A stretch of 39,908 nucleotides of DNA, from positions 1 to 39,908 of the IMG/VR virus record IMGVR_UViG_2703718871_000021. One strand, 5' to 3'. Position numbers and translations under genes: made by a program. Shown here in pieces: positions 29,425-39,309 of this stretch; the first letter of the stretch is position 1, and each line of letters opens with the position of its first letter. This stretch comes from a virus (taxonomy: Duplodnaviria > Heunggongvirae > Uroviricota > Caudoviricetes). Under the pieces are notes generated by a model, which worked only from the letters and a program-made list of their open reading frames with translations, did no database searches and had not been told where the DNA came from.

Positions 29425-29621
29425 CGTTTAACAGCCTGCCGGACGGGCTGTCCTACCTTCTCAATCCGGTTGACGCCGGGTTAATTCCTTATACAGCACT
29501 TAAAGATGGCTCTGTCGATTTGTACGACATTGCTCTCTTGAATGACCATCTGGCGGTAAAAGCGGATAACCAGCGGCGCATTGAGAAATGGAGAGAGGAT
29601 AATGAACGCCGAGACTATTAA
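28972..29621 (+). CDS. tail assembly chaperone, extended form via predicted -1 programmed frameshift at T_TTT_TTG (29373-29379)
   Basis: The -1 frame after the slippery site stays open for ~80 codons (…GLTFNSLPDGLSYLLNPVDAGLIPYTALKDGSVDLYDIALLNDHLAVKADNQRRIEKWREDNERRDY) and ends at 29621, overlapping the tape measure start. Confidence 0.45.
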
Positions 29622-31590
29622 AGATTTCCTCGTCTCGCTTGGCTTCAGTGTGGATGATGCAGGAGCGAAAAAATTCGGTTCTGTCCTCGCCGGTACAACT
29701 GCAAATGTCATCAAAATGGGGCTGGCCGTCGAAGGAGCTGCGCTGTCCGTGGTGGCCTTCACGGCTAAGATCGCCTCCGGTCTGGATAATCTTTACTGGG
29801 CGTCACAGCGCACCGGCGCGACAGTCCAGGGAATTCAGTCTATTGGCTATGCGGTTTCGCAGGTTGGCGGCAGCGTGGACGCTGCGCGATCTTCTCTGGA
29901 AAACCTCTCCCGGTTTATTCGTAATAATCCCGGGGCGGAGGGATTTCTGAATCGCCTGGGCGTACAGACCCGTGATGCCAGCGGTAACATGCGTGACATG
30001 GCCGCTATCTTTACGGGCGTTGGACAGAAACTCAGCAGCATGCCGTATTACCGGGCTAACCAGTATGCGCAGATGCTGGGCATTGACGAAAATACCCTTA
30101 TGGCGATGCGCCGGGGTGTGGGTGGCTTCTCCGGGCAGTACAGCGCAATGGCGAAAGCTATCGGCTTCAATGCTGACGAGGCGGCCAGAAGCTCCAACAA
30201 ATTTATGACCTCCCTGCGTGAGTTTAGCGCGATGGCAGGCATGGCCCGTGACAAAATCGGCTCTAATCTTGCGGGTGGGCTTGCAGGTTCGCTGGACACC
30301 CTGCGCCGCCATATCCTGGACAACTTCCCTCGTATCGAGCAGACCCTGACGAAAGCCATAAAAGGCATTCTGGCGCTCGGGGATATTATCGGGCGGCTGT
30401 TCTTCAGACTGATTGAGGGGACATCAGGCCTTATCACCTGGTGGCAATCGCTGGATAAGCAAACGCGGGAGTTGATCTCGCTGTTTGGCGCACTGACGAT
30501 TGCGCTGCGCATTCTGAACAGTACGTTCTGGATGTCGCCGGTTGGCCTCATTACCGCGCTGGCGGCGGGGATTGCCCTCCTGTGGGAGGACTATCAGACC
30601 TGGAAGGAAGGCGGCGACAGCCTGATTGACTGGGGCAAGTGGAAACCGGAGGTCGATGCCGCGCTGAAGATGGTTCGTGACCTTAAAACGACCGTTAACG
30701 ACCTGGCGAAAGCGCTGGCGAAACTACTCAATATTGACCCCAAATCATGGTCCCTGAAGTGGGATTTCAGCAACTTCATCGACCAGATGGGCGAATTCAG
30801 CAAAATGCTGAACATGATCGCCGACCTGCTCAACGCTATCAAAGATGGCCGCTGGGCTGATGCCGTCAGCATCGGCAAACAGATACTTAATCAGGGCAGC
30901 GAAAATCCGTCAGCGATGCCGATGGTTACAGACAGCGCTAATAGTACTGCCGACTGGATTAAAGAGCACTGGGGATTCGATCCCCGCAGTGTGGGCCGGA
31001 CGGTACGCGGCTGGTTTGGTGATGATGAGCCGGAACAACATGCACAGGCTACGAAACGAGGAGAACGGAATAACAATCCGGGAAACCTTAATTTTGCTGG
31101 TCAGGCGGGGGCTTCTCTTGAACGCCCGGGCGGGCGATTTGCCAGATTCGAAACTGCCTTTGATGGATTACGGGCTCTTGCTCGTCAGTTAATGTTGTAC
31201 GCCGGACGGGGAATAAACAGCGTGGAGAAAATTGTCTCTACCTGGGCGCCTGCGTCTGATAATAACAACACAACTGCGTATATCAGGGCTGTATCGCAAC
31301 GACTGGGAGTGGATCCCCGGGCTGCCCTGAATATGAGCGATCCGCAAACCATGTCAGCATTGATGAGCAGCATTATCCAGCATGAGAATGGAAGAAATAT
31401 CTATTCTCGAGAGCTGATTAATAAGGCTGCCGTGGCGGGAATTAGTGGCAAAGTGACAGAGGTTAACCAGCAAAATACCTACCACATTTACGGTGGCGGA
31501 GATCCGCACGCTGTCGGTAATGAGGTTGCACGTCGGCAACAGTCTGCAAATGCTCAGGTCATGCGAAGTAATCAGGTGAGGGTGGGTTAG
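29602..31590 (+). CDS. tail tape measure protein
   Basis: ~662 aa from ATG 29602 (RBS GGAGAGAGGA); long Ala/Gly/Leu-rich helical protein in the position after chaperone genes; hydrophobic central segment. Confidence 0.75.
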   Translation: MNAETIKDFLVSLGFSVDDAGAKKFGSVLAGTTANVIKMGLAVEGAALSVVAFTAKIASGLDNLYWASQRTGATVQGIQSIGYAVSQVGGSVDAARSSLENLSRFIRNNPGAEGFLNRLGVQTRDASGNMRDMAAIFTGVGQKLSSMPYYRANQYAQMLGIDENTLMAMRRGVGGFSGQYSAMAKAIGFNADEAARSSNKFMTSLREFSAMAGMARDKIGSNLAGGLAGSLDTLRRHILDNFPRIEQTLTKAIKGILALGDIIGRLFFRLIEGTSGLITWWQSLDKQTRELISLFGALTIALRILNSTFWMSPVGLITALAAGIALLWEDYQTWKEGGDSLIDWGKWKPEVDAALKMVRDLKTTVNDLAKALAKLLNIDPKSWSLKWDFSNFIDQMGEFSKMLNMIADLLNAIKDGRWADAVSIGKQILNQGSENPSAMPMVTDSANSTADWIKEHWGFDPRSVGRTVRGWFGDDEPEQHAQATKRGERNNNPGNLNFAGQAGASLERPGGRFARFETAFDGLRALARQLMLYAGRGINSVEKIVSTWAPASDNNNTTAYIRAVSQRLGVDPRAALNMSDPQTMSALMSSIIQHENGRNIYSRELINKAAVAGISGKVTEVNQQNTYHIYGGGDPHAVGNEVARRQQSANAQVMRSNQVRVG

Positions 31591-32177
31591 TGGATATTCT
31601 CTCTACACTTTTTCATCAGCAGAGCAGAAAAATAGGAATGATTGTTCCCAGTGTTGTTATTTCAGAGAAGCATACAGATATGCTTGAAATAACAGAGCAT
31701 CCGGTAGAGGTCGGGGCCGCTGTCGCTGATCATGCCTATAAAAAACCGTCAGAAGTGGTGATGGAGGTTGGTTTCGCCGGTGGCGGCGCATTGCTGGATT
31801 TTGCCAGTAACCTGACGGCTACCAGCCTGCTCGGCCTGAGTCCTCAGCAGACGTATCAGGAGCTACTGGGTCTGCAGGAAAGCCGTATCCCCTTCGATGT
31901 GGTAACCGGTAAACGGCTGTACAGCAACATGTTGATCCGGGCGCTGGAAGTGACGACGGACAAGACAACCGAAAACGTCCTGTCCGCCGTCCTCACCCTG
32001 AGGGAGGTCATTATCTCCCGGACACAGCAGATTACCGTCGCGGATAAAACCAACATGAAGGAAGGGGCCAGCACGTCGGCGGTACAGAACAGCGGCAACA
32101 AAACCACAAAGCCTCCAGATACTTCACTGCTGAAAAGCATCACGGGTAACGTGGCGTCATTACTGGGGGGCGGCTAA
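31590..32177 (+). CDS. hypothetical tail/baseplate protein
   Basis: 195-aa ORF, start overlaps tape measure stop. Confidence 0.5.
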   Translation: MDILSTLFHQQSRKIGMIVPSVVISEKHTDMLEITEHPVEVGAAVADHAYKKPSEVVMEVGFAGGGALLDFASNLTATSLLGLSPQQTYQELLGLQESRIPFDVVTGKRLYSNMLIRALEVTTDKTTENVLSAVLTLREVIISRTQQITVADKTNMKEGASTSAVQNSGNKTTKPPDTSLLKSITGNVASLLGGG

Positions 32178-32479
32178 TGACAATTCAGGAAATTCCGCTG
32201 ACAGCGGACAATCAGCAGTTCAGCATCGTCCTGGGGGGTGTCACCTGGCGGATTAGCATCATATGGCGCGATCTGTACTGGATTATGGACCTGCAGAACG
32301 ACAGAGGGGAGCCGGAAATCTCCGGTATTCCTCTCGTCACTGGTGCTGACCTGCTGGCGCAGTACGCCTGTATGGGGCTTGGTTTTAAGCTGGTGGTGGT
32401 CTGTGATGACAACACACAGGATTACCCCACAAAAACTGACCTGGGCGGTCGCAGCCATTTACTGGTATCAACGGAGTAA
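32177..32479 (+). CDS. hypothetical tail/baseplate protein
   Basis: 100-aa ORF overlapping neighbours. Confidence 0.5.
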   Translation: MTIQEIPLTADNQQFSIVLGGVTWRISIIWRDLYWIMDLQNDRGEPEISGIPLVTGADLLAQYACMGLGFKLVVVCDDNTQDYPTKTDLGGRSHLLVSTE

Positions 32480-32481
32480 GC

Positions 32482-33546
32482 ATGTCACAGAACTGGATGA
32501 GACATTTCGAGCTGCAGCTTGTGGACGGGAACGGTCAGGGAATTGAGCTAAGTGATTTCAAAGTCACCTTTACGATCGACTGGTTCAACATCAGCAGCGC
32601 GTCCCGGGTAGGGACTATCAAAATTTATAACCTCTCGGCAGATACTGTGAACCGAATTACCGGGCAGGAGTTTTCGAAAGTGCGTCTGATTGCGGGTTAC
32701 GACGGTATCGCGCCGGAGGTGTCGGCAAGCGACGTCGGGACAGTGCGGGAAGTTGACGCGGCGGACGTGGGCCAGAGTGATGGTCGCAACTACGGACTGA
32801 TTTTCAGCGGTGAAATTCGCTACTCGGTCACAGGAAAAGACAGTCCGGTTGATTCCTACGTCCTGATTCAGGCAGCCGATACAGATCTGGCTTTTGCCAC
32901 CAGTATAACCTCACAGACGCTGGCTGCCGGTTACACGGTCGCTGATGTAAACCGTGCGCTGATGAAAGACTTTGAAGCCAAAGGCGCGACCGAAGGCCTG
33001 ACGCCTGAAATGCCTGCGACTGTATTCCCCCGGGGGCGGGTGCTCTTTGGCATGACGCGGCATCTTATGGATAACGTAGCCGGGCAATGTGGCGCAACAT
33101 GGCAATTCGTGGATGGTCAACGCCAGATGGTGGCGAATAATGAATATGTTCACGAAGCGATTGTGCTCAACAGCGCTACCGGGCTTATTGGCATGCCGCA
33201 GCAGACCATCGGCAACGGCGTAAACGTCCGCGCGCTTATTAATCCGAACATCCGGGTTAACGGGCTCATTCAGCTGGATCAGGCTTCGGTGTATCGTACC
33301 GCGTTGTCGAACAACGATATCGCGATGGCCGGTGGGCAGATCACCGACCAGAACACAGACGGAAATATCACGCTCAGCGGCACCACATCGCAGCCTGCCA
33401 GCATCGCAACGGATGGCGTTTATATTGTGCGCGGGATTATGTACACTGGTGACACAAGGGGCCAGGCGTGGTACATGGACATGATGTGCGAAGCGCGCGG
33501 CGCGGCGGATCTTGTTTCCTCATCAGCGAGGGGAAGAGGACTTTAA
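32482..33546 (+). CDS. putative baseplate hub/tail protein
   Basis: 354-aa ORF in the position of Mu/P2-type hub proteins between tape measure and spike; assignment by synteny. Confidence 0.5.
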   Translation: MSQNWMRHFELQLVDGNGQGIELSDFKVTFTIDWFNISSASRVGTIKIYNLSADTVNRITGQEFSKVRLIAGYDGIAPEVSASDVGTVREVDAADVGQSDGRNYGLIFSGEIRYSVTGKDSPVDSYVLIQAADTDLAFATSITSQTLAAGYTVADVNRALMKDFEAKGATEGLTPEMPATVFPRGRVLFGMTRHLMDNVAGQCGATWQFVDGQRQMVANNEYVHEAIVLNSATGLIGMPQQTIGNGVNVRALINPNIRVNGLIQLDQASVYRTALSNNDIAMAGGQITDQNTDGNITLSGTTSQPASIATDGVYIVRGIMYTGDTRGQAWYMDMMCEARGAADLVSSSARGRGL

Positions 33547-33878
33547 TGAAACGGTTCTGTTTGGCGTTAGCAATGATGGTTACTGCTCCGGCGATGGCTG
33601 CAATTCAGTGCGGCAATTACACAATGACCGGTGACGGAATGACTGTTATTAACGGTGAAACCGTCACATCTCAGAAAATCAAATTTCTGGGAAAAGATGG
33701 TGACGACTCAAACATGAAAATGGACATGGGCCTGATGCCTTCTCGCGATGGTAACAATTACGGCTTTGAGTTTGTGAAGCGTAACGGAAAAGCTTTCCTG
33801 AACGTCCAGCTGCTGCAGAACAGCATGGACGCGCCGAGAATTATCGGATCTTTCCCGTGTAAGAAAGTCGCTGGGTGA
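33546..33878 (+). CDS. small secreted protein with signal peptide (unknown function)
   Basis: 110 aa from ATG 33546 overlapping previous stop (TAATG); MKRFCLALAMMVTAPAMA then AIQ looks like a Sec signal peptide with AxA cleavage site; two Cys in mature part. Confidence 0.5.
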   Translation: MKRFCLALAMMVTAPAMAAIQCGNYTMTGDGMTVINGETVTSQKIKFLGKDGDDSNMKMDMGLMPSRDGNNYGFEFVKRNGKAFLNVQLLQNSMDAPRIIGSFPCKKVAG

Positions 33879-34027
33879 ATAGAATCTGAACGCTGTCTCA
33901 TCTGAAAAACAACAAAACGTGCTCTAAAAACTGTCGTTTTTTGAGGCTAGCGATTACACTGCTCTAACTTTTTGATGGTGAATTGCCATCGATATGCACC
34001 CCCATAAAAGCCAGGAATAACTAAAAC

Positions 34028-34759
34028 ATGAGCTTAGCGCAGCCAAAATCAGGAGAACTGTTAGATCTTCTGACCCCTTCATTAACTAAGGGTGAAAATC
34101 TTCTGAGTGAATTTGAAGTACATCAAATCATTCGTGAAGCTAAGAAAATCCCGGAACGTTATCAGGGGTTATCGATTGAAGGCTTAGCTAAGCTTGTTCT
34201 TGGTGAAATCGAAGAGGGGTGCTCTCTCTGTGAACAAGGGTTGAGACTCGCTCCTAACGATTCAGTTTCTTTCTGTAACTATACGATAGCGCTGCGTAAC
34301 TTAGGTTTGCACGCTCGCCAGTACGCAATGATTCAGAATTCGGCCAACTCACTTAACCCAACAATACTGGCTGAAGTTGCAACAATTTCTGCATACTGGG
34401 CTGATATCGATTTGCTTGAAAAGGTGATGCCGATGCTGACAGCTATGGAAGTGCCGCGTCCTGAAGAAATGGCAAAGTGGTGTCACACACTTGATTATCT
34501 GCATACCCATCAAGAGCATGCTCAGGATCTCAAAACCATTGGGCAGTTAATGATGAATGTCGCAGACAAGTATCGTGTGCGTCTCGCGGGTGCTCATGCT
34601 TTTTACGTTTTGTCAGAACTTGATACGCTATTTGTGGAAGTCAAAACAGACGATCCAGCGCTCCTCTCGCAGATGAATAACGACCTAGCTGACGAGATTA
34701 TCAATGCTGGTCTTGCCGATTCTGAATGCGTCGGATGCTTTGAAGCGGGGGATTTTTAA
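34028..34759 (+). CDS. hypothetical protein, gene 1 of low-GC two-gene cassette
   Basis: 243-aa ORF after 149-bp intergenic gap; visibly lower GC than flanking tail genes; helical-looking with Cys pairs (CSLCEQG, CVGCFEAG); no recognised motif. Confidence 0.6.
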   Translation: MSLAQPKSGELLDLLTPSLTKGENLLSEFEVHQIIREAKKIPERYQGLSIEGLAKLVLGEIEEGCSLCEQGLRLAPNDSVSFCNYTIALRNLGLHARQYAMIQNSANSLNPTILAEVATISAYWADIDLLEKVMPMLTAMEVPRPEEMAKWCHTLDYLHTHQEHAQDLKTIGQLMMNVADKYRVRLAGAHAFYVLSELDTLFVEVKTDDPALLSQMNNDLADEIINAGLADSECVGCFEAGDF

Positions 34760-35187
34760 TGGCGGTTGAACATACCTGTTTCCTTGAGCTTGCAAAACAT
34801 TCCCTTACTTTAAACGGTGAAATGTGGACAAGAAACGCAATTAGCCGAGCATATTACGGCATGTATCATTCGGCGTTACGAATTACCAATAATTTGGTCC
34901 CAAGTTTTACTGAAGACGGTGAAAAATTAAAAGGTGGTGTTCACATGCGAGTCTATACCGTGTTTTGTAGCGGTGAAGCAGCTGCAGTGAACAATGTCGA
35001 TGTTAACGCAGTAAAAAAAATCGGCGTAAAGCTGAAAATGACGCATGCACAACGAATTAACTCAGATTACAAACTTGAGCGAAAGGTTAATCGAATTACA
35101 GCGATAAGCGCGATTCAGGATGCAGAAGAAGTCGATACAATCGTTAATCAACTTTTGAAGGTTGGCGACGATTCGTTAACCGCATAA
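34759..35187 (+). CDS. hypothetical protein with HEPN-like R-x6-H motif, gene 2 of cassette
   Basis: 142-aa ORF whose ATG overlaps gene-1 stop (TAATG); RAYYGMYH at residues 30-37 fits the R-x(4-6)-H pattern of HEPN RNase motifs (may be coincidental); low GC; terminator follows. Confidence 0.6.
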   Translation: MAVEHTCFLELAKHSLTLNGEMWTRNAISRAYYGMYHSALRITNNLVPSFTEDGEKLKGGVHMRVYTVFCSGEAAAVNNVDVNAVKKIGVKLKMTHAQRINSDYKLERKVNRITAISAIQDAEEVDTIVNQLLKVGDDSLTA

Positions 35188-35207
35188 GCTGCAATTCCTC
35201 ATAAATC

Positions 35208-35232
35208 AAACCCGCCACCCGGCGGGTTTTTT
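35208..35232 (+). terminator. rho-independent terminator closing the two-gene cassette
   Basis: CCCGCC-accc-GGCGGG followed by TTTTTT. Confidence 0.6.
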
Positions 35233-35251
35233 GCTTTCTGGAGCCTACCAA

Positions 35252-36004
35252 ATGGCAGTATCTGACCAGACTCGCAGCGGCGACCTTGCCGAAACATTCA
35301 AATCTGAGCGGGAAACCATTAAAAACCAGATCCGTGTCGCGTTACCTGGCATTATTCAGTCATTCGACCCTGACGCGGTTACGGCGGTTGTGCAGCCTGC
35401 TGTCCGTTCGGTTGAAACTGATAACGACGGGAACCGCATTACCAAAAATTACCCGCTGCTGGTGGATGTGCCGGTGGTATTTCCGCGCGGCGGAGGCTGC
35501 ACGCTAACGTTCCCGGTTAAAACTGGTGATGAATGTCTGGTAATTTTCGCCGATCGCTGCATCGATTTCTGGTGGCAGAGTGGCGGGATACAGGCGCCGG
35601 TCGATGATCGAATGCATGATTTATCGGATGCGTTTTGTATTGTCGGTCCCCAGTCGCAGGCAAGGAAGATTAGCGGTATTAATACCAGTGCCACACAGTT
35701 GCGTAGTGACGACGGCAGCACCTATTTTGAGCTTAATCCTGATACCAGGAAAATTAAAATTGTCGCTCCGGGGGGGCTTGATGTGGTTGCCCCCTTGGCT
35801 GATTTTTCTGAGAAAGTAACCATTCATGGCCTGTTAACCTGGATGGGTGGCATGGTGGGGTCTGTTGTTTCTGGTGTGGCTTCAAAAATCACTGGTGCTG
35901 TTGAGTTCTTGGGGAGCGTGAAGGCTAACGGCAAGCCAATCGATGATACGCACACTCATGGCGGTATTCAGCGCGGTGGAAGCAATACCTATGGGGTAAA
36001 CTGA
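35252..36004 (+). CDS. baseplate spike / baseplate assembly protein V-like
   Basis: ~250 aa from ATG 35252 (RBS GGAG); C-terminal THTHGGIQRGGSNTYG resembles spike-tip motifs of gpV/gp45-type proteins. Confidence 0.65.
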   Translation: MAVSDQTRSGDLAETFKSERETIKNQIRVALPGIIQSFDPDAVTAVVQPAVRSVETDNDGNRITKNYPLLVDVPVVFPRGGGCTLTFPVKTGDECLVIFADRCIDFWWQSGGIQAPVDDRMHDLSDAFCIVGPQSQARKISGINTSATQLRSDDGSTYFELNPDTRKIKIVAPGGLDVVAPLADFSEKVTIHGLLTWMGGMVGSVVSGVASKITGAVEFLGSVKANGKPIDDTHTHGGIQRGGSNTYGVN

Positions 36005-37556: not shown

Positions 37557-38233
37557 GCAAATACACCGAACTAATCACGAACTACCACGCCACCAAACCT
37601 AAATTTCTTGCGCATGTTGATCTGATGACCCGGCCACTTATTGATGTTGCGGCTGCCACCAGAGGGCTGATTACTGCATTTGATATTGACTCTGCGGTTG
37701 GTGTGCAACTTGACATTCTTGGATTGTGGATCGGACGTAGCCGTGTTGTCAGCCAGCCTATCTCAGGTGTCTATTTCAGCTGGGATACCGACGGGCTTGG
37801 ATATGATCAGGGGGTATGGCGGGGACCATACGATCCTGATTCAGGATACATGTATCTCAGCGATGAAACTTATCGTGTCATTCTTAAAGCGAAGATTGCG
37901 ATTAATAACTGGGACGGACGGAATGATTCGCTTCCGGCAATTCTTGACGCGGCAACAGCAGGATCCGGGCTGCGAATGCAGATAGTCGATAACCAGGACA
38001 TGACGATATCGGTCTGGGTCTTTCCTGATACTGATATTTCAGATGTATCGCGTGAGTTAATTGCGGCAATTAAACAGGGGTATCTCACAGTAAAAGCCGC
38101 CGGGGTATGGGCGGGTGGCATTGAAACACCTTCGGTGGAAACCCCATCGGAAGGCTCAAAATTTTTTGGTTTTGATATGGATAACGAATTCATCAGTGGT
38201 TTTGATGTAGGAGCATGGGGAGTATTACTCTGA
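37553..38233 (+). CDS. tail protein (Mu gp48/P2 gpI-like position)
   Basis: 226-aa ORF overlapping J-like stop and preceding the tail fiber gene. Confidence 0.55.
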
Positions 38234-39309
38234 TGGCAAAAAATGACTTTAAAGCATTCGCAACGGGTAAAAATGCCAATGTTATGTCGCAGGAGGAATG
38301 GGAAGCGTTGCCTGCGCTTTTATCCGGATTTACAGCAGGGAAAGCATCCAGTGCGCAAGTCAACAAGGCTATTCGGCAGGCCAGCTTTATTGCATCTGCA
38401 ATAGCACAATATACAGCAAATGAAAGTGGACTGGATGTACAGGATGATGGCGAGCAGGCCGGCTTTATCGCAAAAATGTCGTCTGCATTAGATAAGAACT
38501 ACCAGAGAATTAATGCCATACTTACCGCACTTGCTAATCTTTCAGCATCCGAAAACAAATTACCGTATTTTACCAATCAAGATACCGCTAATTTGGCTGA
38601 CCTGACACAGGTTGGGCGAGATATTTTGGCAAAAAGCTCTGTTGCTGATGTCCTTAAATATCTTGGTCTGGAAGATAATTCGACTTTTCCTGTAGGTGCC
38701 CCGATCCCGTGGCCATCAGATACAGTTCCATCTGGTTATGCTCTGATGCAGGGACAGACTTTTGACAAGTCTGCATACCCGAAACTTGCAGCCGCTTATC
38801 CGTCAGGCGTGATCCCTGATATGCGTGGCTGGACGATTAAGGGCAAGCCCGCCAGTGGTCGTGCCGTATTGTCTCAGGAACAGGACGGCATTAAATCGCA
38901 CACCCACAGCGCCAGCGTATCCAGTACGGATTTGGGTACGAAAACCACATCGTCGTTTGATTACGGGACGAAAACAACCTCACTATTTGACTATGGGACC
39001 AAAACTACCAGTAACGCCGGGAGTCACACGCATTCAATACCAACATCAGATGGTGCAAACCAGGGGGGGAAAATTCCACTGACATCTGGGCGTCTGGCAA
39101 CTCAATATACATCAGCAACAACAGGTTCCTCTGGCTCACATTCTCATACTGTAGGTATTGGTTCTCATCAGCACACTGTCGGTATTGGTGCACACACGCA
39201 CTCCGTTGCGATTGGCTCACATGGACACACCATCACCGTTAACGCTGCTGGTAACGCGGAAAACACCGTTAAAAACATTGCATTTAACTATATTGTGAGG
39301 CTTGCATAA
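38233..39309 (+). CDS. tail fiber protein with internal tandem repeats
   Basis: ~358 aa from ATG 38233; three GTKTTSxFDY repeats and three SH-x-HTVGIG/H-x-H repeats near the C-terminus; followed by tail fiber assembly gene. Confidence 0.7.

Follow-up and report, generated by a model that had tools for sequence, protein, structure and literature searches.

What does a two-gene cassette do that interrupts the baseplate operon of a temperate phage? The question is raised by the IMG/VR virus record IMGVR_UViG_2703718871_000021 (Caudoviricetes; 39,908 nucleotides (nt), the whole of which is called the window below), a genome with a backbone of the SEN34/E217-like temperate myovirus type. A preliminary description, made from the sequence alone, had singled out two open reading frames (ORFs) at 34028-35232, here gene 1 and gene 2, as the expected layout of an abortive-infection or toxin-antitoxin (TA)-like defence module with a HEPN-like effector. 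We report here that the two genes form an obligate, mobile unit which encodes a TPR-like protein and a HEPN-fold protein with a non-canonical site. With a probability of about 0.5, we propose on the basis of sequence and predicted structure that this pair may be an uncharacterised HEPN-effector TA-like abortive-infection or phage-exclusion module expressed from the prophage.

A two-gene insert in a polymorphic slot

The cassette comprises the following elements (window coordinates; aa, amino acids; pI, isoelectric point).

33879-34027, plus strand: intergenic leader of the cassette (sequence read, promoter pattern scans)
34028-34759, plus strand: gene 1, TPR-like protein, proposed sensor/antitoxin partner (243 aa, pI 4.65)
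34759-35187, plus strand: gene 2, HEPN-fold protein of AF0298/UPF0332 type, proposed effector (142 aa, pI 7.8)
34846-34869, plus strand: helix-2 family signature R30-A-Y-Y-G-M-Y-H37 of gene 2 (model helix 21-43, alignments)
34933-34944, plus strand: G59-G60-x-H62 element in the helix 2-3 insert of gene 2 (H62 invariant in 13/13 paired homologues, aligned to 'SSH' of 9xbd)
35053-35070, plus strand: R99-I-N-S-D103-Y104 at the C-terminal end of helix 3 of gene 2 (invariant in 13/13)
35208-35232, plus strand: intrinsic terminator AAACCCGCC-ACCC-GGCGGGTTT with T-run, 20 nt 5' of the spike gene ATG at 35253

The anatomy given in the preliminary description (two ORFs with a TAATG overlap, a 149-bp gap, low guanine-plus-cytosine (GC) content, a terminator and tightly packed flanking tail genes) is present throughout. 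The TAA stop codon of gene 1 (34757-34759) shares one base with the ATG of gene 2 (34759-34761), and a GGGGGA Shine-Dalgarno-like run is located closely upstream of the latter. Both ORFs are real genes, given that full-length homologues are found down to ~20-25% identity and that the AlphaFold2 (AF2) models are confident (predicted local distance difference test score, pLDDT, >91). The gap 5' of gene 1 covers the whole of the leader, and the terminator stem-loop (35208-35229) has nine pairs, six of them G-C, and a 4-nt loop, with the T-run reaching 35232. GC varies between 0.40 and 0.46 along the cassette, compared with 0.53-0.57 in the upstream baseplate genes, and amounts overall to 0.436 as against 0.513 in the flanks; it is below that of the flanks in 10/10 loci compared. 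Upstream, the tape measure gene (29581-31590) and the baseplate genes (31590-33546) overlap tightly, with Dit-like, plug and hub genes reaching up to 33546. Downstream, the spike gene (35253-36004), annotated as a membrane-puncturing spike protein with a PF18352 domain, is followed by sheath initiator, baseplate J and wedge genes.

The placement of the cassette as an accessory insert in a variable slot, also advanced in the preliminary description, is borne out by related phages. A megablast search with the region 33400-35700 revealed the flanks in 350 of 5,426 complete Escherichia coli genomes and the cassette in only 33, and the same slot between hub and spike genes holds other cargo in relatives: a 170-aa gene in vB_EcoM-606R2 (L002:3479-3991), a 77-aa and a 138-aa gene in SEN34 (L003:2939-3610) and a 266-aa gene in Yersinia phage YP3 (L004:3659-4459). 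The slot is therefore polymorphic. In 606R2 and YP3 the cargo comes after a conserved small ORF of ~111-113 aa. None of the cargo genes of these three phages has a match in Pfam or PADLOC, and they are further uncharacterised morons unrelated to the cassette. The description of the site as a phage hotspot holds as regards polymorphism, but the slot is not yet an established defence hotspot, as the cargo of 606R2, SEN34 and YP3 gave no matches to known defence genes. With its own terminator, its atypical composition and its presence/absence polymorphism among related phages, the cassette is a horizontally mobile, self-contained two-gene accessory insert, a moron, between baseplate hub and spike genes. 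In SEN34/E217-like prophages, the junction of hub and spike genes merits mining for further cargo.

A further polymorphic insertion, small as well, is an ORF of 45 aa between the spike and sheath-initiator genes of SEN34 (SEN34_23, L003:4495-4632) and of some Salmonella prophages (L024:10065-10202 and L025:10064-10201). Neither the window, in which these two genes abut at 36004, nor E. coli T28R has this ORF.

Obligate pairing and spread

All gene 1 homologues with a readable neighbourhood (13 loci) have a gene 2-type HEPN gene directly 3' of them, at a distance of -11 to +16 nt, and no intact copy examined carries one gene alone. The order of the pair is conserved, and the two genes co-diverge down to ~20-25% identity; their identities co-vary with a Spearman coefficient of 0.86 over 78 locus pairs, which are not independent of each other. 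Gene 1 evolves faster than gene 2 in 76 of these 78 pairs.

The pair was found in at least nine contexts. It occupies the same hub-spike slot in E. coli, Salmonella and Ewingella, the Salmonella copy being very common and located in a prophage that adjoins lepA. Elsewhere in tail modules it is located 3' of the tape measure gene in a Lelliottia prophage of lambda-like type, between the genes for the tail chaperone and the tape measure in a siphovirus of Klebsiella variicola, and at other positions in Serratia and Enterobacter myoviruses. Further copies adjoin an Arc/antirepressor/KilA-N island in a Brenneria prophage, are embedded in the nin-like accessory region that separates replication from lysis genes in Klebsiella phage Chronis, or belong to a metagenomic element with a resolvase. 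In a Vibrio P2-like phage the pair is located between gpA and the ogr/portal genes, that is, exactly in the P2 gpA-gpQ interval, which is the old/tin locus and a reservoir of anti-phage systems (Rousset 2022, PMC9122126). Finally, one copy resides on a chromosomal islet free of phage genes, with alaE/nrdHIEF on one side and small HTH (helix-turn-helix) genes on the other. The hosts of prophages with the pair include Salmonella, E. coli, Citrobacter, Enterobacter, Klebsiella, Serratia and Vibrio; counts exceed 1,100 index blocks for the Salmonella orthologue and reach at least 1,000 contigs for some E. coli/Enterobacteriaceae variants. Gene 1 and gene 2 are an obligate, mobile unit.

On the phage-free islet (L021:8498-9122) the pair adjoins two divergent genes, HTH_35 (98 aa) and HTH_3 (73 aa), which together look like a small TA or regulator module.

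Gene 2, a HEPN protein with a non-canonical site

The AF2 model of gene 2 is a four-helix up-down HEPN bundle. Profile searches gave two matches, both weak, to 2hsb (expectation value (E) 0.0026) and 9xbd (E 0.078), and no match at E<=1 to any Pfam family, HEPN PF05168 included, nor any in NCBIfam or PADLOC. The protein falls into PHROG 5176, a family of function not known, and its homologues are mainly restricted to Enterobacterales, a few of them being labelled 'UPF0332 family' by JGI. Its closest structural relatives are the AF0298-like HEPN-T/UPF0332 proteins (COG1895, PF05168-type; PDB 2hsb, 1ufb, 1wol and 9xbd). Gene 2 differs from these in being too diverged for the Pfam HEPN model, in occurring in enterobacterial and Vibrio phages rather than in archaea or thermophiles, and in having as its partner a TPR-like protein instead of an MNT nucleotidyltransferase. 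By its fold, gene 2 belongs with the AF0298/UPF0332 (HEPN-T, 'Class II') HEPN proteins.

The preliminary description had called this protein HEPN-like on account of a motif, RAYYGMYH, read as the R-x(4-6)-H signature of HEPN toxins. Structure prediction upholds the assignment to the fold, and the motif is present at residues 30-37, but the argument from it fails. The Rx4-6H motif of the HEPN superfamily lies at the end of helix 3 (PMC3710099), whereas R30-x6-H37, the only R-x(4-6)-H in the protein, lies on helix 2 (residues 21-43). As 53% of composition-preserving shuffles of gene 2 contain such a pattern, its bare occurrence is uninformative. R30 is moreover replaced by Thr in the most distant paired homologue (a metagenomic pair) and in AF0298. 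RAYYGMYH represents a family signature of helix 2, S-R-A-Y-Y-x-M-Y-H, with the equivalents 'STAYYAMFH' in AF0298 and 'SRAYYAMFY' in 9xbd; H37 is invariant in 13/13 paired homologues and is Tyr in 9xbd, a related solved HEPN protein.

The canonical Rx4-6H is absent from the end of helix 3 (residues 82-104) of gene 2, where the position is taken by R99-I-N-S-D103-Y104, with no His. R99-D103-Y104 aligns to 'REESDY' of AF0298 and 'RNRSDY' of 9xbd, and H62 aligns to 'SSH' in the full-length alignment with 9xbd. All 13 paired homologues, with identities going down to 25%, share seven invariant residues (E21, R25, H37, H62, R99, D103 and Y104). Members of the AF0298-like HEPN-T family typically have D where the His would be, and the insert between their helices 2 and 3 holds another conserved His, for which an alternative active site together with the retained Arg has been proposed; the AbiV family likewise deviates from the canonical motif (PMC3710099). 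Gene 2 fits the pattern published for the AF0298 clade, with R99 and D103 retained and H62 as the alternative His in the helix 2-3 insert. Because residues of helix 2 sit near the motif in HEPN domains (PMC3710099), H37 may, by analogy, also be part of the predicted active site.

Two further forms of gene 2 appear to be decayed copies, namely a truncated 80-aa version in S. Typhi genomes (protein P0254) and a C-terminal fragment that stands alone (32% coverage, 80% identity) on the 310-kb conjugative Salmonella plasmid CP049309.1 (304514-304648).

Gene 1, a TPR-like protein

Gene 1 had been described as a helical protein in which no catalytic motif could be recognised. Its model (pLDDT 91.2) shows ten helices (residues 7-160) arranged as a TPR-like solenoid, followed by a small C-terminal domain (~162-240) of alpha-beta-beta-alpha-beta order, the elements of which span 162-182, 186-193, 199-205, 210-226 and 234-240, respectively. 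The family profile matches consensus-TPR designs over residues 58-143, in agreement with the TPR fold. Searches of Pfam, NCBIfam and PADLOC gave nothing significant for gene 1, and the profile of the C-terminal domain retrieved only coiled-coil or designed-repeat noise from the PDB. No HTH or RHH (ribbon-helix-helix) domain was detected.

An exhaustive profile search among 1.84 billion cluster representatives yielded ~58 full-length relatives of gene 1, all standalone and 220-276 aa long, the longer matches being generic multi-repeat TPR proteins. Only N84 and F238 are near-invariant in this family. An indexed profile search for distant homologues added just two context-eligible members, and a fold search of BFVD retrieved two matches, both of them unannotated family members from gut siphoviruses (template modelling score 0.66-0.68). 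Gene 1 is a TPR-like protein of a small, unannotated and never-fused family.

Expression signals

An AGGA ribosome-binding site is located in the leader at 34013-34016. A strict promoter scan of the 33879-34027 gap found none, and a relaxed pattern scan gave a weak sigma-70-like candidate, TTGAGG (33941-33946) and TAACTT (33965-33970) with an 18-nt spacer. In 5/13 loci, on different backbones, a conserved promoter-like element, better than this candidate, precedes gene 1, with -35 TTGAA[G/A], N17 and -10 TA[T/C/A][G/A]CT (L007:7880-7925, L010:7870-7915, L013:4175-4220, L005:7170-7215 and, in L019, ~94 nt 5' of gene 1). The window copy has a different leader, which is without this element. Its -35 box is overlapped by an inverted repeat of 7 bp (TTCAACC/GGTTGAA) in the copies of K. 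variicola and Chronis; this repeat could be an operator for autoregulation. A GC-rich hairpin with T-run, mostly of the CCCGCC-N4-GGCGGG type, follows gene 2 in 11/13 loci, again on different backbones. Judged from these sequence patterns, regulatory signals appear to travel with the cassette.

Comparison with known systems

The preliminary description had assigned neither protein to a named system, and this stands: no match was found in PADLOC, Pfam or NCBIfam, and none in the literature. In PADLOC-DB v2.0.0 (2023), no family reached E<=1 for gene 1, gene 2 or a small ORF upstream of them, and the searches of Pfam, NCBIfam and PADLOC with these three proteins returned only a sub-threshold TPR_17 match and a spurious S1-domain match (E 0.033). 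PHROGs offered families of function not known only. Public annotations of the pair read 'hypothetical', 'bacteriophage protein', 'UPF0332 family' or 'TPR protein' and nothing else; no literature on this gene pair was found, and NetFlax is without a comparable node.

Given that 'Class II' HEPNs lack RX4HXY and usually flank MNT genes (Yao et al., PMC7641770), type VII HepT/MntA (SO_3166/SO_3165) is an obvious comparison. A regex search shows that gene 2 is without RX4HXY, and gene 1 has neither the GSX10DXD motif nor a nucleotidyltransferase fold, so it is not an MNT antitoxin, an identity that the preliminary description had put up for fold comparison. Because the motifs of HepT and MntA and the fold are absent, neutralisation of the AMPylation type is not expected.

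Closer in their logic are HepS of Gifsy-1 (PMC13043305) and Tha of S. aureus prophages (PMC11087260), which we compared by description. Both are HEPN proteins of prophages that mediate abortive infection in response to structural proteins of phages, in the case of HepS to siphovirus tail-tip proteins (PMC13043305). They likewise place a HEPN effector in an accessory slot of a temperate phage, and the logic proposed is the same, with an effector that is inactive by default and activated when a competing phage infects. HepS is however a single protein with a canonical R100-H105 and no partner, whereas the cassette consists of two obligately paired genes and its site is non-canonical. RnlAB and LsoAB also combine a HEPN toxin with a protein antitoxin (against T4), but RnlA and LsoA are larger, multidomain proteins with canonical motifs, and RnlB-type antitoxins are unrelated to the TPR protein encoded by gene 1.

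The DefensePredictor system DS-28 (WP_000528930, a HEPN nuclease, and WP_000494510) is a validated E. coli pair that is alike in combining a small HEPN with an unannotated protein of ~250 aa. As its gene order is opposite, its motif is the canonical RNSVAH and homology is not detectable (hhalign probability 0.2-0.3%), DS-28 was rejected as the same system. In anatomy the window copy matches the lambdoid morons, with lower GC, its own terminator and a position between late genes, while a sequence relationship to Old, Tin, PARIS or other validated hotspot cargo was not found (PADLOC negative). New in this HEPN-based two-gene module are the kind of partner and the non-canonical site.

Proposed function and alternatives

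The reading of the pair as a TA-like abortive-infection or phage-exclusion module is in agreement with the TA-like layout, in which the acidic partner comes first and translation of the more basic HEPN is coupled to it, with the mobility of the pair between accessory and defence slots and with the fold of the effector. Sensors and antitoxins often evolve fast, and for this reason the faster evolution of gene 1 was counted in favour of such a role.

The following mechanism can be envisaged. The HEPN protein, probably a dimer, would be a metal-independent ribonuclease (RNase) acting at the non-canonical site of its clade (R99 and H62, possibly with H37, D103 and Y104). It would be co-produced with the gene 1 protein, which would bind it and neutralise its toxicity and whose TPR surface would act as a sensor by binding proteins. 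Release of the nuclease would come about through a protein of the incoming phage or because the gene 1 protein is lost upon infection. The free nuclease would then cut tRNA or mRNA, so that the infected cell would stop growing; the defence phenotype predicted in this way is that of abortive infection. In its most specific form, in which a fast-evolving TPR sensor silences an insert-histidine AF0298-type HEPN RNase and frees it once it recognises a competing phage by one of its proteins, the proposal of a new two-component anti-phage system is tentative and somewhat short of an even chance.

Several points weigh against a defence module of this kind. Neither protein matches PADLOC-DB v2.0.0, Pfam or NCBIfam. 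None of eight orthologues was found by its RefSeq accession in the portion of the DefensePredictor supplement text searched. The literature searched holds no TPR-type antitoxin for a HEPN toxin and no demonstration of RNase activity for AF0298-like ('Class II', PF05168-type) HEPNs, for which Yao 2020 notes only the lack of RX4HXY (PMC7641770). Gene 2 is without the canonical catalytic His, and its HEPN could be non-catalytic. The hub-spike slot is not an established defence hotspot, because the alternative cargo of 606R2, SEN34 and YP3 has no defence matches, and the promoter upstream of the window copy amounts to a weak candidate.

Some of these points would suit a non-toxic pair that benefits the phage, in which the HEPN is dead or binds RNA or nucleotides and the pair acts in regulation or in counter-defence, where it might for instance sequester a host immune protein or signal. 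HEPN domains without catalytic residues can be non-catalytic binders (PMC3710099), TPR proteins are generic protein binders, and the cassette is carried within phage genomes, isolated phages included, with no defence database match. We nevertheless regard this as unlikely, though by no means negligible. The invariance of E21, R25, H37, H62, R99, D103 and Y104 down to 25% identity fits an active site better than a passive scaffold, and a moron layout that includes an own terminator and, in relatives, a promoter of sigma-70-like type is better suited to genes expressed in the lysogen than to counter-defence early in the lytic cycle. The pair also occupies the P2 old/tin slot, the cargo of which is predominantly defensive (PMC9122126), and occurs on a phage-free chromosomal islet. 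The same islet copy, standing alone beside small HTH genes, could also speak for a plain addiction-type TA that stabilises its prophage or island by post-segregational killing without specific phage sensing, as could the coupling of an acidic upstream partner to a HEPN, given that HEPN toxins are classical TA toxins (PMC7641770). Yet a folded TPR solenoid of 243 aa (pLDDT 91) is unlike the small, labile, DNA-binding antitoxins of type II, and the fast evolution of gene 1 relative to the effector suits a sensor under arms-race pressure, so that we consider plain addiction rather doubtful; TA and defence roles are in any case not mutually exclusive.

Two other explanations carry little weight. 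That the pair is found inside tail gene modules, in the window and in several relatives, could indicate a tail structural or assembly accessory, such as a TPR chaperone and its helper for baseplate or spike assembly. This role is very improbable and was rejected, because the pair is polymorphic among close relatives, which lack it or hold unrelated cargo in the slot (33 versus 350 E. coli genomes), and because it also occurs at non-tail positions (nin-like region, P2 gpA-gpQ, chromosomal islet) and in backbones with unrelated tails (myo- and siphoviruses); its lower GC and own terminator point the same way. A cryptic Class II HEPN/MNT (type VII-like) pair, with gene 1 as a diverged nucleotidyltransferase that AMPylates Y104, might be suspected because the closest structural relatives of gene 2 (AF0298, TT1696 and ST0689) belong to a HEPN group usually paired with MNT (PMC3710099, PMC7641770) and because Y104, beside the R motif, is invariant. 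This is scarcely credible, being largely refuted by the fold of gene 1, and a cryptic MNT identity of gene 1 was rejected on motif and fold.

Other features of the window

Between the hub gene and the leader lies a 111-aa ORF (33543-33878, plus strand), which overlaps the stop codon of the hub gene (ATGA). It has an N-terminal signal-peptide-like sequence (MKRFCLALAMMVTAPAMAA...), a somewhat low GC of ~0.47 and a match to PHROG 3443 (unknown function), with none in Pfam or PADLOC. An ORF of ~109-117 aa, likened to it by position, is located 3' of the hub gene in E. coli, 606R2, YP3, Ewingella and Salmonella relatives, and for this reason the ORF appears to be part of the phage backbone rather than of the cassette. 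Its product may be a secreted or periplasmic phage protein.

Further downstream, the tail-fibre protein encoded at 38215-39309 (plus strand) has C-terminal His-rich repeats (GSHTHS...) and tandem 'DYGTKTTS' repeats. Its HxH repeats appear to resemble metal-binding repeats of other phage fibre tips.

Implications

HEPN nucleases are recurrent effectors in bacterial immunity and TA systems, and one more HEPN-based candidate defence module would not alone surprise specialists. If the proposed function is true, however, the cassette would for the first time give the large 'Class II' UPF0332 HEPN group a function and a test case of catalysis, and it would reveal a new, non-MNT way to control a HEPN toxin. 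It is a tractable enterobacterial example with invariant candidate catalytic residues (H62, R99, D103, Y104 and H37). Since the pair sits in prophages of clinically important species, it may also influence the phage susceptibility of these bacteria and the host range of phages used in therapy.

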